From the NCBI GenBank assembly GCA_965243565.1, contig OZ251571.1, positions 321,523 through 385,522 of the forward strand: 64,000 bases of DNA, given 5' to 3'. The notes beneath the pieces were generated by a model, which was not told where the DNA came from, did no database searches, and was given only the letters and a program-made list of their open reading frames with translations. Below are positions 29,373 through 34,856 of the stretch, piece after piece. Source of the DNA: Gammaproteobacteria bacterium (GTDB lineage Bacteria > Pseudomonadota > Gammaproteobacteria > Tethybacterales > Persebacteraceae). The position numbers and the translations under genes were made by a program. How positions within the stretch are numbered: the stretch's first letter is position 1; each line of letters begins with the position of its first letter.

Positions 29373-32294
29373 ATGGGGAGTTTGGATCAGGAATACGGCG
29401 TACAATCAAGCATACAATCGGCTGATGTACAGCAAAATAAAATATTTTCTTCGGGCATTGTTACACCAGAAGAAGACTACAAAATTATTCGTCGCAATGG
29501 TATGGTTGTGTCTTTTGACAGAACCAAAATAAAAGTTGCCATTACCAAAGCATTTTTAGCGGTACGTGGTCAAACTGTTGCCGATTCCACTGCCGTTCGT
29601 ACCATCATCGAACAAACCACTGAACAAGTTATTCAGGCGTTATTTCGCCGTAAAACTTTAATTGCGACATTCCACATCGAAGACGTACAAGACCATGTTG
29701 AGTTGGCATTAATGCGTGGTGGACATCATGATATTGCCCGCGCGTATGTATTGTATCGCGAAGCCCACACTAATAGTCGGCGGGATCAACTGGATGTTAT
29801 GGCGGAGCAAGAAATTTACTTTGTTACCGAAGCTGGAATGCGCCAAATTTTGGATATTCATGTCTTGTCTGACCGTATTCAAATGGCATGTGCAGGACTT
29901 TTGGAGGTTGATTCAAAAAAATTACTCAAGATGACATTACGTGATTTGTATGATGGCATTAGCGAAAAAGATTTAAATACGGCATTGTTTATGGTGGCAA
30001 GGAGTTTTATCGAGCGTGAGCCTGAATACTCTTACGTGAGTGCGCGTTTATTATTAGACATGTTACGGCGGGAGATTTTTGGTTGTTACGTCCAACAATC
30101 GCAAATGGAAACGGAATACAAAGATCATTTGCAGCACATGCTAGAAAAAGGAGTGGCAGCCGAATTACTTGATGAACGTTTGTTAACAATTTTTGATTTG
30201 GAGCGTCTAGGCTTGACGTTAAATGCCTCCAGAGATTTGCAGTTTAATTATTTAGGCTTACAAACGCTTTATGACCGCTATTTCTTACATATCCGTGGGC
30301 AACGCATAGAAATGCCCCAAGTCTTTTTTATGCGGGTAGCGATGGGTTTGGCAATAGAAGAAGATGACCCTACCCAGCGAGCGATTGATTTTTATGAAAT
30401 GTTATCAACATTTCGTTTTATGAGCTCCACGCCCACCTTATTTAATTCGGGTACTCTGCGTTCACAGCTATCAAGTTGTTATTTAACCACCGTGCCAGAC
30501 GACTTAGACGGCATTTTTGAATCCTACAAAGAAAATGCTTTATTGGCAAAATATGCGGGTGGTTTGGGCAATGATTGGTCATCGGTAAGAGCCATGGGAG
30601 CACATATTAAAGGCACTAATGGTCAATCACAAGGCGTTATCCCCTTTTTAAAATTGGTCAATGACACAGCGGTTGCGGTTAACCAAGGCGGAAAGCGTAA
30701 AGGAGCGGTTTGTGCGTATTTAGAATCTTGGCATCTTGATATTCTCGACTTTCTTGATTTGCGTAAAAATTCGGGTGATGACAGACGTCGAACACACGAT
30801 ATGAATACGGCGAATTGGATTCCAGATTTATTCATGAAGCGCGTAATTGACGATAAAAATTGGACACTTTTTTCACCCAACGATGTGCCAGAACTTCACA
30901 GTTTATTTGGTGCTGCCTTCGAAAAAAAGTATGTCGAATACGAAGAAAAAGCCGCTGCTGGTGAACTTCGTAGCCAATCCATAGAAGCAGTTTCGTTATG
31001 GCGGCGTATGCTCACCATGCTATTTGAAACAGGGCATCCGTGGATTACCTTTAAAGACGCTTGCAATGTGCGCTCACCACAACAACACGTAGGAACCGTT
31101 CATTCCTCGAATCTATGTACCGAAATCACTCTTAATACCAATGCCGAAGAAATTTCCGTATGTAATTTGGGCTCGGTTAATTTGGTGGCACACATCAAAG
31201 ACAAACAGTTAGACACTGAAATGCTGGCAACCACTATAAAAACAGCCATGCGTATGTTAGACAATGTTATCGACATCAATTATTATTCGGTCGAAAAAGC
31301 CAAGCAATCGAATCTACGTCACCGTCCAGTTGGTTTGGGGATTATGGGTTTTCAGGATTGTTTATACGAGTTAGGTATTTCTTATTCATCCAATGAAGCC
31401 GTTGAATTTGCCGATAAATCAATGGAAAAAATTTGTTATGAAGCCTATTGGGCATCCACCGAATTAGCCGAAGAACGTGGTTCTTACGAAACGTTTTCGG
31501 GAAGTTTATGGGAACAGGGGATTATGCCTATGGACACTTTGCGTTTATTGGCAAAAGAGCGAGGTGATTCGGTTGATATGAGTGGCGAATTACTACCTAC
31601 TCAAAAAACACTCAATGGTCAATACTTACAAATTAATACCCAACAAACGTTGGATTGGGATGCCTTGCGTGGTCGTATTAAACAACATGGCATGAGAAAT
31701 TCCAATTGCACGGCAATTGCCCCCACTGCCACCATTGCCAATATTGTTGGTGTTACAGCATCCATTGAACCGACCTTTCAAAACATTTTCACCAAATCAA
31801 ATTTGTCGGGAGAATTTGTGGTGTCCAACCGTTATTTGGTTGATGAACTCAAAGCACTGGATTTGTGGGACGATGTCATGCTAGAAGACATTAAGTTTTT
31901 TGATGGACGATTAGATAAGATTGATCGTATTCCTCATTCCATTCGTCAAAAATACCCAACCTCATTTGAAGTAGATCCGTTTTGGTTAATCGAATGTGCT
32001 GCCAGAAGACAAAAATGGATTGATCAAGCGCAATCACTCAATTTATACATTGCCGCTCCTTCGGGCAAACTACTAGACGAAATGTATAAAACCGCATGGT
32101 TGCGTGGTTTAAAAACAACCTATTATTTACGCTCATTGGCAGCCAGCAGCACCGAAAAATACACCACTCGTACCGGGGCGCATAATTCAGTGGCAGCCAA
32201 TGGCGAGATGAATGGCTCCAATGGTTCCAATGGTGCTGATGCCCAACCACGTGCTTGTGCCATTGATGACACTGAATGTGAATCTTGTCAATAA
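29373..32294 (+). CDS. nrdA: Class Ia ribonucleotide reductase alpha subunit with tandem N-terminal ATP-cone domains.
   Basis: ATP cone 'KIIRRNGMVVSFDRTKIKVAI'. Active-site region 'NLCTEI'. C-terminal redox tail '...CAIDDTECESCQ'. Its 973-aa length is consistent with a duplicated ATP cone. Confidence 0.95.
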   Translation: MGSLDQEYGVQSSIQSADVQQNKIFSSGIVTPEEDYKIIRRNGMVVSFDRTKIKVAITKAFLAVRGQTVADSTAVRTIIEQTTEQVIQALFRRKTLIATFHIEDVQDHVELALMRGGHHDIARAYVLYREAHTNSRRDQLDVMAEQEIYFVTEAGMRQILDIHVLSDRIQMACAGLLEVDSKKLLKMTLRDLYDGISEKDLNTALFMVARSFIEREPEYSYVSARLLLDMLRREIFGCYVQQSQMETEYKDHLQHMLEKGVAAELLDERLLTIFDLERLGLTLNASRDLQFNYLGLQTLYDRYFLHIRGQRIEMPQVFFMRVAMGLAIEEDDPTQRAIDFYEMLSTFRFMSSTPTLFNSGTLRSQLSSCYLTTVPDDLDGIFESYKENALLAKYAGGLGNDWSSVRAMGAHIKGTNGQSQGVIPFLKLVNDTAVAVNQGGKRKGAVCAYLESWHLDILDFLDLRKNSGDDRRRTHDMNTANWIPDLFMKRVIDDKNWTLFSPNDVPELHSLFGAAFEKKYVEYEEKAAAGELRSQSIEAVSLWRRMLTMLFETGHPWITFKDACNVRSPQQHVGTVHSSNLCTEITLNTNAEEISVCNLGSVNLVAHIKDKQLDTEMLATTIKTAMRMLDNVIDINYYSVEKAKQSNLRHRPVGLGIMGFQDCLYELGISYSSNEAVEFADKSMEKICYEAYWASTELAEERGSYETFSGSLWEQGIMPMDTLRLLAKERGDSVDMSGELLPTQKTLNGQYLQINTQQTLDWDALRGRIKQHGMRNSNCTAIAPTATIANIVGVTASIEPTFQNIFTKSNLSGEFVVSNRYLVDELKALDLWDDVMLEDIKFFDGRLDKIDRIPHSIRQKYPTSFEVDPFWLIECAARRQKWIDQAQSLNLYIAAPSGKLLDEMYKTAWLRGLKTTYYLRSLAASSTEKYTTRTGAHNSVAANGEMNGSNGSNGADAQPRACAIDDTECESCQ

Positions 32295-32295
32295 A

Positions 32296-33702
32296 ATGAT
32301 TGCCCCTGTTATCATCAGCGATTCCATCAAGCAATGGCATGGTCGGGTGATTCACGGTGATAACCTAACTATTTTAAAGGAAATTCCCGATAATTCTGTT
32401 GAATTAATCTATATTGATCCACCCTTTAACACTGGAAAAGAGCAGTTTCGGCAGCGTATTAAGACAGTCGAAGTAACCACTGGTGATGGTGATAGAACTG
32501 GTTTTGGTGGCAAGCGATACAACACTACATTTGTCAATAAAAATGGTTACGCTGATTCCTTTGATGATTTTATAGGTTTTTTAGAGCCACGCTTGCGCGA
32601 GGCGCATCGCATTTTAACAAAAAATGGCAGTTTGTTTTTTCATATTGACTGGCGCGAATCTGCCAATTGTCGCTTGTTACTCGAAACTATTTTTGGCGGC
32701 AAACAACACTGTCTCAATGAAATTATCTGGGCCTATGACTACGGCGCCCGCTCGCAGAAAAAATGGTCACCGAAGCACGATAACATTTATTGGTTTGCCA
32801 AAGACCCTGCTAATTACTTATTTAATTACGACGCCATGGAGCGTATCCCCTATATGGCGCCTGAATTGGTTGGTGCCGAAAAAGCCGAACGTGGTAAAAC
32901 GCCAACCGATGTATGGTGGCATACCATTGTAGCAACCAATGGTAAAGAAAAAACAGGTTATCCCACCCAAAAACCGCTTGCCTTATTGCGATGGATAGTG
33001 GCGGTTCATTCCAATGTGGGTGATACGGTGTTGGATTTTTTTGCAGGCAGCGGTACAACGGGCGAGGCGGCTAAGCAACTGAACAGAAATTTTATTTTGA
33101 TTGATAAAAATGATGATGCGGTTGACACCATCAATAAAAGAATTAATTCTGACAATAAAAAGCAGGACAATATTTACACTTTAACGGAACAAGAAAAAAG
33201 CCTGCAAGCAAAAATTCAAACGTTGAAAAATAGCACCGATTATCGCCCTGATAAAACTATTTGGTCGGGCAGTCCTAACGCTTGGATGTTGACACTCCCT
33301 TCTGCTCGTAAAGGAAAATTAGGCAGAGAATTGGTGGTCGAATTACTGTATTTATTTTTAGGAGTGAAGTCCGAGAAAAAAGGCAAAGCAATAGCTGTAA
33401 AAAATAAAAAAATAGCAGCAAAATTTTCAATGCTTTGGGATACAAGCGTTTATAAATTTGAACAAATAAGACCAACATTTGATTATTACTGTTTTTTAGG
33501 TATATCGCCTAATAAATTTTATTTTTGGATAATTCCTGCCGAAGAATACGGAAATTTTGATAAGCAGCACAATGAACAATCTCGTTGGGTTGAATATAAT
33601 CCAAGCAAAAATAACGACAGTGCTATAAATTGGTCGCAGTATGGTGGTGATATTGCACAATTACAAGCAACAGATTTTAATTATGTAGAATTAGCAAATT
33701 AA
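32296..33702 (+). CDS. Beta-class (N6-adenine/N4-cytosine) DNA methyltransferase with an uncharacterised C-terminal domain of about 190 aa.
   Basis: Motif IV 'IYIDPPFNTG' precedes motif I 'VLDFFAGSGTTGEAA'. The ATG at 32296 is 1 nt after the nrdA stop; the longer ORF from 32212 overlaps nrdA. Confidence 0.8.
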   Translation: MIAPVIISDSIKQWHGRVIHGDNLTILKEIPDNSVELIYIDPPFNTGKEQFRQRIKTVEVTTGDGDRTGFGGKRYNTTFVNKNGYADSFDDFIGFLEPRLREAHRILTKNGSLFFHIDWRESANCRLLLETIFGGKQHCLNEIIWAYDYGARSQKKWSPKHDNIYWFAKDPANYLFNYDAMERIPYMAPELVGAEKAERGKTPTDVWWHTIVATNGKEKTGYPTQKPLALLRWIVAVHSNVGDTVLDFFAGSGTTGEAAKQLNRNFILIDKNDDAVDTINKRINSDNKKQDNIYTLTEQEKSLQAKIQTLKNSTDYRPDKTIWSGSPNAWMLTLPSARKGKLGRELVVELLYLFLGVKSEKKGKAIAVKNKKIAAKFSMLWDTSVYKFEQIRPTFDYYCFLGISPNKFYFWIIPAEEYGNFDKQHNEQSRWVEYNPSKNNDSAINWSQYGGDIAQLQATDFNYVELAN

Positions 33703-33761
33703 TAACAACAAACAGTCGGTAAAAGTAAACAAAAAAAACGAAAAATAAGGAAATACAAGGC

Positions 33762-34856
33762 ATGACATCAAAATTTGAAACACAAGATGAAATTAATTTA
33801 GACATATTAAAAACGGATACCGTGTATAACCAAAACAACTTTAGGCGTGTGCGTGTGGATGACAAAAGAATCATCAATTGTCGTGCTGATATTAACCAAT
33901 TGATGCCCATTAAGTACAGCTGGGCATGGGAAAAATACATTGCGGGTTGTGCCAATCAGTGGATGCCGAATGAAATAAGCATGCAACGCGATATTGAACA
34001 GTGGCGGAGAAAAGATTTTTTATCCGAAGAAGAACGCCACATGTTAAAGCGAAATTTTGGATTTTTCTCAACAGCCGAATCATTGGCGGCAAATAATATT
34101 ATATTGGGGACTTATCGATTAATCACCAACCCAGAATGCCGTCAATATTTACTGCGGCAGGCATTTGAAGAAGCCGTACACGTTCATGCGTATCAGTATA
34201 TTGTTGAATCGTTGGGCTTAGACGAAGGTGAAATTTTTAATATGTACATGGAAGTACCTTGTGTCCATAACAAAGATGCTTTTTGTTTGGAATATATCGA
34301 TACCTTAACTGATCCTGGCTTTATCACTGGCACAGAGAAATCTGATCGGCAGTTGTTAAAATCATTAATCGCTTTTTCAATGATTATGGAGGGCTTGTTC
34401 TTTTATGTTGGTTTTGTGCAGATTCTTGCATTGGGTAGGCGCAATAAAATGCCGGGTTGTTCAGAACAAATACAGTATATATTGCGCGATGAATCCTTGC
34501 ATTTAAATTTTGGGATTGATGTGATTAACCAAATTAAATTAGAAAACCCTTATTTGTGGACAGAAGATTTTAAAGAAGAGGTTTACGGTATGATGAAAAC
34601 AGCGGTTAATCTAGAATATCAATATGCAGAAGAAACAATGCATGATGGTATTTTAGGTTTGAGTTGTAGTTTGTTTAAAGAATTCTTACGTTTTGTTGCC
34701 AATCGTCGTTTGGAGCAAATTGGTTTAAAGCCTATTTTTGAAAATGCGACTAACCCATTTCCTTGGATGGGAGAAGTCATTGATTTGAAAAAGGAAAAGA
34801 ACTTTTTTGAAACACGTGTTGTTGAATACCAAACAGGCGGTAAACTTACGTGGTAG
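33762..34856 (+). CDS. nrdB: Class Ia ribonucleotide reductase beta subunit.
   Basis: Di-iron ligands '[17 protein letters not shown]' and '[14 protein letters not shown]'. C-terminal alpha-binding tail. Confidence 0.95.

Follow-up and report, generated by a model that had tools for sequence, protein, structure and literature searches.

In a 64,000-nucleotide stretch of a genome assigned to the Gammaproteobacteria (Tethybacterales, Persebacteraceae; assembly GCA_965243565.1, contig OZ251571.1, positions 321,523 to 385,522 of the forward strand), referred to here as the window, the genes for the two subunits of ribonucleotide reductase (RNR), nrdA and nrdB, are separated by a gene encoding a DNA methyltransferase fused to a C-terminal domain (the C-domain) that has the predicted fold of the PD-(D/E)xK nucleases and has lost their catalytic acids. 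The features of this nrdA-M-nrdB unit, in window positions, are as follows (ORF, open reading frame; AF2, AlphaFold2; AdoMet, S-adenosylmethionine).

29373-32294, plus strand: nrdA, class I RNR large subunit, 973 aa, first gene of the operon (ORF list; Pfam ATP-cone, Ribonuc_red_lgN and Ribonuc_red_lgC, E 8.4e-190)
32296-33702, plus strand: fusion gene, methyltransferase plus putative pseudo-nuclease, 468 aa plus stop (ORF list and sequence)
32317-33156, plus strand: beta-class N6-adenine (amino) DNA methyltransferase domain, aa ~8-287 (PF01555, PDLC03300 and M.RsrI matches; AF2)
32416-32427, plus strand: catalytic motif IV DPPF, aa 41-44 (direct sequence reading)
33040-33063, plus strand: AdoMet-binding motif I FAGSGTTG, aa 249-256 (direct sequence reading)
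33157-33255, plus strand: variable linker, aa ~288-320, with one predicted helix at aa 298-310 (AF2; low homologue identity)
33256-33690, plus strand: PD-(D/E)xK-fold domain (putative pseudo-nuclease), aa ~321-465, degenerate paralogue of a free ~183-aa nuclease-like partner
33388-33423, plus strand: active-site hairpin remnant, A365, A374 and K376 (family alignment, motif D-x8-E-x-K; AF2 strands)
33703-33761, plus strand: A-rich spacer of 59 nt between the fusion gene and nrdB (sequence)
33762-34856, plus strand: nrdB, RNR small subunit, 364 aa, closing the unit (Pfam Ribonuc_red_sm, E 2.7e-89)

The fusion gene begins with an ATG at 32296, 1 nt past the TAA stop codon of nrdA (which ends at 32294), and closes with a TAA at 33700-33702. 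Its mechanical ORF opens further upstream, at 32212, but the start at 32296 is preferred because the N-termini of homologues and the register of the PADLOC profile agree on it. The initial annotation had likewise put the gene 1 nt past the end of nrdA and inside the nrdA-nrdB pair, a placement that is confirmed and in which its translation would be coupled to that of nrdA; the ORF it described is real as well, although the product is 468 aa plus stop rather than 469 aa and the spacer ahead of nrdB measures 59 nt rather than 60. The spacer holds a ribosome-binding-like AAGGAA, and no terminator-like site is found on the plus strand within 33703-33761 or elsewhere separating nrdA, the fusion gene and nrdB. 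A sigma-70-like promoter match (TGAACA, 16 nt, TATAAT; 10/12 positions) is seen at 33573-33600, within the C-domain coding region and ~160 nt 5' of nrdB, and might let nrdB be expressed independently; across the region, promoter-like matches do not exceed the frequency seen in shuffled sequence.

The N-terminal part of the protein was recognized at the outset as a beta-class amino-methyltransferase, and profile searches agree. PF01555 (N6_N4_Mtase) matches aa 35-281 over its full profile (1-221) with E 2.8e-51 and 175 bits against a cut-off of 26.7, the PADLOC MTase_II model PDLC03300 matches with E 9.5e-122, and the best relative of solved structure is M.RsrI (1eg2; E 5e-31 across aa 87-271). 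The DPPF of motif IV lies N-terminal to the FAGSG of motif I, which is the beta-class permutation; among 16 aligned fusion homologues, D41, P42, P43 and F44 are conserved at 90% or more, and F249, A250, G251, S252, G253 and T254 are invariant. The predicted local distance difference test score (pLDDT) of the AF2 model is mostly >90 throughout the domain. The methyltransferase is, judging by these matches and motifs, intact, and we infer that it would methylate adenine (DPPF type) in a short motif genome-wide. With the NCBIfam model of CcrM (NF050803), whose cut-off is 830, it scores 96 bits and is thus no CcrM equivalog. The domain also gives weak secondary matches to families of RsmD-like and other small methyltransferases (Cons_hypoth95, 1.4e-8; TIGR00095, 2.7e-5), which raise the alternative that the enzyme acts on RNA or protein, and that its operon position reflects an unrelated function. 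However, these matches are confined to the shared AdoMet-binding motif (aa 242-301), the domain as a whole matches DNA methyltransferases far more strongly, and relatives are paired with a nuclease, so that we regard a non-DNA substrate as extremely improbable.

The last ~190 aa had been left unassigned, and residues 281-468 indeed have no sequence match in Pfam, NCBIfam or the Protein Data Bank (PDB); yet the PADLOC REase_II model PDLC03515 recognizes the C-domain with E 6e-14 (both PADLOC models are REBASE-derived). A word-indexed search with the C-domain alone as query returned one protein, whereas HMMER, run exhaustively against 1.84 billion representatives, returned 242 relatives, nearly all of them free-standing proteins of 170-190 aa annotated as hypothetical. 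The top HMMER match, P0002, was discarded, being a 1173-aa repeat protein that aligns to the low-complexity linker only. A Pfam scan of 104 C-domain family members assigned no family and gave scattered sub-threshold matches to DUF6998, NaeI and Mrr_cat.

Structure prediction, proposed in the initial annotation as a check on this part of the protein, points to a PD-(D/E)xK fold. The AF2 model of the C-domain (pLDDT 83; predicted template modelling score 0.77) has a helix and then a series of strands, and contains the alpha-beta-beta-beta-alpha-beta core of the superfamily. In the full-length model (pLDDT 84.4) aa 8-287 are confident, aa 288-320 form a disordered stretch plus helix and the nuclease fold occupies aa 321-465; the linker falls below a pLDDT of 50 at aa 287-294 and is 0-22% identical to homologues. 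Fold comparison places I-Ssp6803I first (9.3), followed by MepB (8.0), NhoI (7.7), the Eco15I N-terminal domain (6.9), DpnI (6.6), HhaI (6.4), Hjc (6.1), ThaI (5.7) and PvuII (5.7), and Foldseek recovers the same nucleases with weak scores. Rather than a novel type of domain, the C-domain is a degenerate paralogue of the small PD-(D/E)xK partner usually found downstream of methyltransferases of this family. A homing-endonuclease-type insertion was also considered, for the fold match to I-Ssp6803I and for the position of T4 mobE, which lies between nrdA and nrdB, and was rejected because the C-domain comes from the family of the methyltransferase's own partner and is without the catalytic residues.

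Canonical members of the nuclease family carry an aspartate that opens strand 2 and an ExK on strand 3, spaced by eight residues. In the family alignment the D is present in 93/149 sequences, the E in 72/152 and the K in 135/152, with both acids in 68/152 sequences and neither in 52/152. The corresponding hairpin of the window protein (AF2 strands 365-368 and 371-379) has A365 in place of D and A374 in place of E, followed by A375 and K376, such that only the lysine is retained and the surrounding sequence (KKGKAIAV...KIAAKFS) has no acidic residue near. The C-domain thus lacks the D on strand 2 and the (D/E)xK on strand 3 that characterize the superfamily, and classical catalysis is unlikely because the D is missing. 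Almost all remaining conserved positions are kept (W323, S326, P327, W330, G340, G343, K376, S378, W381, Y386, F388, Q390, R392, D396, G402, P405, W411, P414, Q424, H425, W431, W446, G450 and G451), and this retention of the fold and part of the surface with loss of the chemistry is, at the level of sequence, the signature of a pseudo-enzyme. E389 (33460-33462, family column 109) faces K376 at a position where the family residue is Q, and could form a salt bridge to the orphaned lysine. At L113:2167-3637, in another genome, a methyltransferase is followed by a free degenerate nuclease-like gene with R, T, R and K at the motif positions and, like the window protein, E at column 109; catalytic acids can evidently be lost without fusion.

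In other members of the family (L088, L092, L093, L094 and others) a cognate nuclease gene adjoins the methyltransferase, as in a Type II restriction-modification (R-M) system. No such gene adjoins it in the window, where a six-frame hidden Markov model (HMM) search of all 64 kb recovered the fused domain and no second copy of the nuclease family, and where the neighbours of the nrd unit are the housekeeping genes dnaX, hscB, hscA, birA, coaX and pstSCAB-phoU; the absence of a nearby restriction gene was thus correctly noted from the start. Protein P0272 is 100% identical to the window fusion protein, and the nrdA-M-nrdB order recurs at three further loci, L087 (P0276), L090 (P0275) and L091 (P0273), whose fusion proteins are 53-56% identical to that of the window. 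There the gene begins 3-28 nt after nrdA and ends between a 1-nt overlap with, and 21 nt before, nrdB. The family HMM, applied to six-frame translations of these loci with 5-6 kb on each side, again found only the fused domain and no partner. Flanking genes differ among the nrd-embedded loci, except that L090 has the nrdB, birA, coaX order in common with the window.

Sequence divergence within this nrd-embedded clade is graded by domain. Between the window and the other three loci, NrdA is 67-68% and NrdB 78-80% identical, with corresponding values of 65-68% for the methyltransferase domain, 37-43% for the nuclease-like domain and 0-22% for the linker, so that conservation of the methyltransferase domain is similar to that of NrdA. 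For all three proteins the closest pair is that of L087 and L091 (NrdA 76%, NrdB 86%, fusion protein 62%), which is congruent with co-inheritance. Synonymous sites are saturated over these distances. The ORF, of ~470 codons, is intact at 4/4 loci across which NrdA is 67-76% identical. The GC content and third-position GC content (GC3) of the fusion gene are within ~2 standard deviations of those of the window's genes, on which ground recent horizontal acquisition was rejected, and plasmid and phage collections hold no close relative (matches at <=37% identity, all without the C-domain). Because of the congruent identities, the composition and the lack of close plasmid or phage relatives, the insertion is, as far as such comparisons tell, old and stably kept. 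The initial annotation would have been undermined by relatives carrying an R-M partner or by a pseudogene; within the nrd-embedded clade the ORFs are intact and partner-less, whereas the more distant relatives L088 and L092 do have a partner nuclease.

We propose, with a probability of about 0.6, that the fusion gene encodes a solitary beta-class DNA N6-adenine methyltransferase, derived from a Type II R-M system and co-expressed with RNR. A partner-less placement between nrdA and nrdB, kept in at least three distantly related bacteria, looks like that of a domesticated epigenetic enzyme and not of a defence system. Two readings had been offered at first; that of an epigenetic regulator co-expressed with deoxynucleoside triphosphate (dNTP) synthesis fits better, given the partner-less insertion in three other genomes and identities congruent with those of NrdA and NrdB, whereas that of a selfish insertion might account for the arrival of the gene but not for its retention.

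The latter possibility can be framed more broadly as a neutral or selfish relic in an essential operon, in which an R-M system or methyltransferase inserted and the toxic nuclease decayed; what is left would persist because an imprecise deletion would upset nrdB expression, and not for any benefit of methylation to the host. The nrdA-nrdB spacer does take unrelated genes elsewhere. The two genes, described initially as normally adjacent, are only roughly so: the spacing in 78 distant relatives has a median of 348 nt and exceeds 600 nt in 26, and some spacers contain other genes. In beta-proteobacterial lineages these include an adenosine deaminase (PF00962; L066:7702-8775, L077:8104-9117, L051:8238-9311 and L080:7952-9100) and a BON+LysM protein (L033:8055-8738, L073:8586-9128 and L053:8681-9373), and the spacer seems to have been colonised repeatedly. 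The linker and nuclease-like domain evolve fast, as the identities above indicate, and the C-domain coding region is AT-rich (GC3 0.24). Solitary methyltransferases derived from R-M decay are well documented, and such decay is reportedly a common origin of these enzymes, which favours this explanation. Nevertheless, we consider a relic unlikely: a ~470-codon ORF has stayed intact at all four loci despite the divergence of NrdA, the catalytic and AdoMet motifs are invariant, and in the C-domain the fold residues are kept while only the catalytic acids vary, a pattern of purifying selection for a non-catalytic function.

Several observations weigh against a domesticated, solitary methyltransferase. 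The methyltransferase domain is 60-72% identical throughout the family whatever its context, which makes its conservation inside the nrd clade a weaker proof of a lineage-specific host function. The nrd-embedded clade consists of four loci (the window, L087, L090 and L091), a count that leaves out the contexts of the fusion homologues P0274, P0277, P0279 and P0298. Glutamate at column 109 is commoner in family members without the ExK glutamate than in those with it (12/78 versus 2/73; Fisher p 0.01, not phylogeny-corrected), and E389 could, on this pattern, be a relocated catalytic residue; relocated catalytic residues are known from Cfr10I/NgoMIV-type variants. A partner nuclease could also be encoded outside the searched 64-kb window.

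These last points belong to a further explanation, that the protein is still an R-M enzyme, either because the fused domain cuts via relocated residues (e.g. E389 opposite K376) or because it pairs with a free partner beyond the 64 kb of the genome that the search covered. The fused domain of L091 retains the D, and fused and free copies occur side by side at L081-L085, L088, L092 and L093, where the fused domain probably evolved to work with the free nuclease. On the other hand, acidic residues are absent from the D position of the window protein and from its immediate neighbours (KKGKAIAV), and within the nrd clade the D position is A, L, F or D, unlike a metal ligand. No partner lies within 5-6 kb at the four nrd loci or in the 64-kb window, though a partner, where there is one, is adjacent, and a nuclease under nrdAB control would be risky to the cell. 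An active R-M enzyme therefore seems quite improbable, and the solitary methyltransferase remains our preferred reading.

Among the matches listed for an NrdB query of GTDB species representatives, identity is at most 71% and the methyltransferase is in none of those 80 loci, and the best 80 loci from a scan of JGI metagenomes added no nrd-embedded copy. The combination of a fixed locus and no nuclease, as in regulatory orphan methyltransferases, is seen at the window and three loci.

Across the wider family, three gene architectures can be distinguished. In the first, a methyltransferase of ~300 aa is directly followed by a free nuclease with a full D/ExK (L094, L114, L132, L139, L153, L159, L161 and L171); L113 has this gene order with a degenerate free copy. 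In the second, the methyltransferase is fused to a degenerate copy and a free copy follows directly (L081-L085 and L093, and also L088 and L092, in which neither copy has the ExK glutamate). The third, the fusion alone, is that of the window, L087, L090 and L091. PDLC03515 recognizes the free partners of relatives with E-values of 3e-60 and 2e-63, in the gene order M then R. In the related genomes at L088:5989-9272 and L092:4935-7212 the free partner is 175-176 aa long and 56-66% identical to the fused copy, and at L088 an IS1595 transposase is inserted between the two genes.

A neighbour-joining tree groups fused with free copies by lineage, with 41-66% identity within pairs, which suggests, as far as a tree of this kind can, either repeated duplication and fusion or gene conversion. 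Most plausibly, the fused copy of the second architecture works together with the free nuclease, which may itself work only as a hetero-oligomer with the methyltransferase; the ancestral architecture may represent an undescribed R-M subtype in which a methyltransferase with an inactive nuclease paralogue is followed by a free active nuclease. At the Chloroflexi-type loci L081:2623-5552, L082:2628-5552 and L084:226-3138, an OmpR-type regulator (Response_reg + Trans_reg_C) precedes the fused/free pair in the same orientation and may control it.

Many further homologues are methyltransferase-only, 60-72% identical and set in varied housekeeping contexts. Some of these (56-62% identical to the window protein) adjoin repair or nucleoside genes (L096:5854-6462, L103:5797-6504, L106:5860-6543, L131:5849-6616 and L135:4428-4985), the neighbours being a UDG-superfamily glycosylase, an AlkD-like DNA alkylation repair enzyme (twice), a PNP/UDP phosphorylase and a queuosine salvage protein; the methyltransferase family may, to judge from such contexts, often provide a solitary housekeeping enzyme. 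At L089:4067-7231, a 335-aa methyltransferase-only homologue, 72% identical to the window methyltransferase domain, overlaps the end of a gene whose 645-aa product matches Exo_endo_phos weakly, and a faint nuclease-family remnant (E 0.006) lies downstream of the homologue; the two could represent a different nuclease partner plus a decayed one.

Both parts of the fusion protein are of known types, the one a PF01555 methyltransferase and the other from a putative Type II nuclease family listed in REBASE/PADLOC. The Type II R-M family of PDLC03300 and PDLC03515 is the closest comparison, since both domains match it and relatives have the order M then R; the window differs in having no free nuclease gene, in the fusion of the nuclease part and its lack of the D and E, and in its location inside nrdAB, whereas the R-M family is a mobile two-gene cassette. 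Single-chain R-M enzymes (Type IIC/IIG/IIL; BcgI, MmeI, DrdV) likewise combine a nuclease fold and an amino-methyltransferase in one polypeptide. They have an N-terminal active nuclease, a gamma-class methyltransferase and a specificity domain; the window protein has the order methyltransferase then nuclease fold, a beta-class enzyme and a dead nuclease site, and without the catalytic acids it does not combine an active nuclease with a methyltransferase in one chain. Small PD-(D/E)xK nucleases (I-Ssp6803I, 2OST; MepB, 4LQE; the BisI-family NhoI and Eco15I; PvuII; Hjc) are only 5-17% identical to the C-domain, which has no sequence-level PDB match and is without the catalytic acids.

CcrM of Caulobacter (PDB 6PBD; sequence match 1.7e-17) shares the beta class, the absence of an adjacent nuclease and the presence of an extra C-terminal domain; both enzymes are conserved within a lineage, and the expression of both is plausibly tied to the replication cycle. 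However, the PD-(D/E)xK fold of the window C-domain is unrelated to the C-terminal domain of CcrM, and CcrM uses CtrA-type control, whereas coupling of the window gene would come from its operon position. CcrM relies on its C-terminal domain for DNA binding, and small PD-(D/E)xK enzymes are obligate oligomers. M.RsrI (GAATTC, N6-methyladenine (m6A), Type II; PDB 1EG2) shares the beta-class catalytic domain and is dimeric (PMC7544214), but it lacks a nuclease-like domain at its C-terminus and has R.RsrI as its partner, and the similarity is too low for its specificity to be transferred. Literature searches for a methyltransferase within nrdAB gave nothing relevant, and the methyltransferase-pseudo-nuclease fusion, the recurrence of fused-plus-free pairs and the conserved placement in a class I RNR operon appear to be new in the searchable literature.

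On our preferred reading, the course of events would have been as follows. The ancestral family would have had a methyltransferase followed by a PD-(D/E)xK nuclease of ~183 aa, to which some lineages added a fused, degenerate nuclease copy; in the nrd lineage the free nuclease would then have been lost, leaving a fused copy without both metal-binding acids and with its fold retained. The gene lies between nrdA and nrdB apparently without a promoter or terminator of its own, so that the protein would be made together with RNR, when the cell makes dNTPs and replicates. With its translation coupled to nrdA on the nrdAB transcript, the level of the enzyme would track RNR expression and hence DNA synthesis, and this coupling would link methylation capacity to DNA synthesis. 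The functional form of beta-class methyltransferases is a dimer (PMC7544214). By analogy, the pseudo-nuclease domain probably serves DNA binding or dimerisation, and it may act as a module for either or both.

To our knowledge, host functions are understood for few orphan methyltransferases (Dam, CcrM and a small number of others), and here the genomic wiring itself yields a testable hypothesis, that methylation capacity is co-produced with dNTP synthesis. The fusion protein also illustrates clearly how a restriction enzyme can become a pseudo-enzyme domain that selection maintains. With it emerges an R-M family that is without a Pfam entry and in which the methyltransferase repeatedly gains a fused, inactivated nuclease copy, bearing on the control of R-M toxicity and on the origin of solitary methyltransferases. 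More tentatively, it is possible that deep-branching proteobacteria hard-wired an m6A methyltransferase into the RNR operon, such that methylation supply follows dNTP supply in a replication-coupled manner like that of CcrM and Dam but built differently, with a dead copy of the restriction partner re-used as a DNA-clamping or dimerising module. Should the methylation motif turn up in the nrd promoter or at the origin, the system would constitute a new replication-linked epigenetic circuit.

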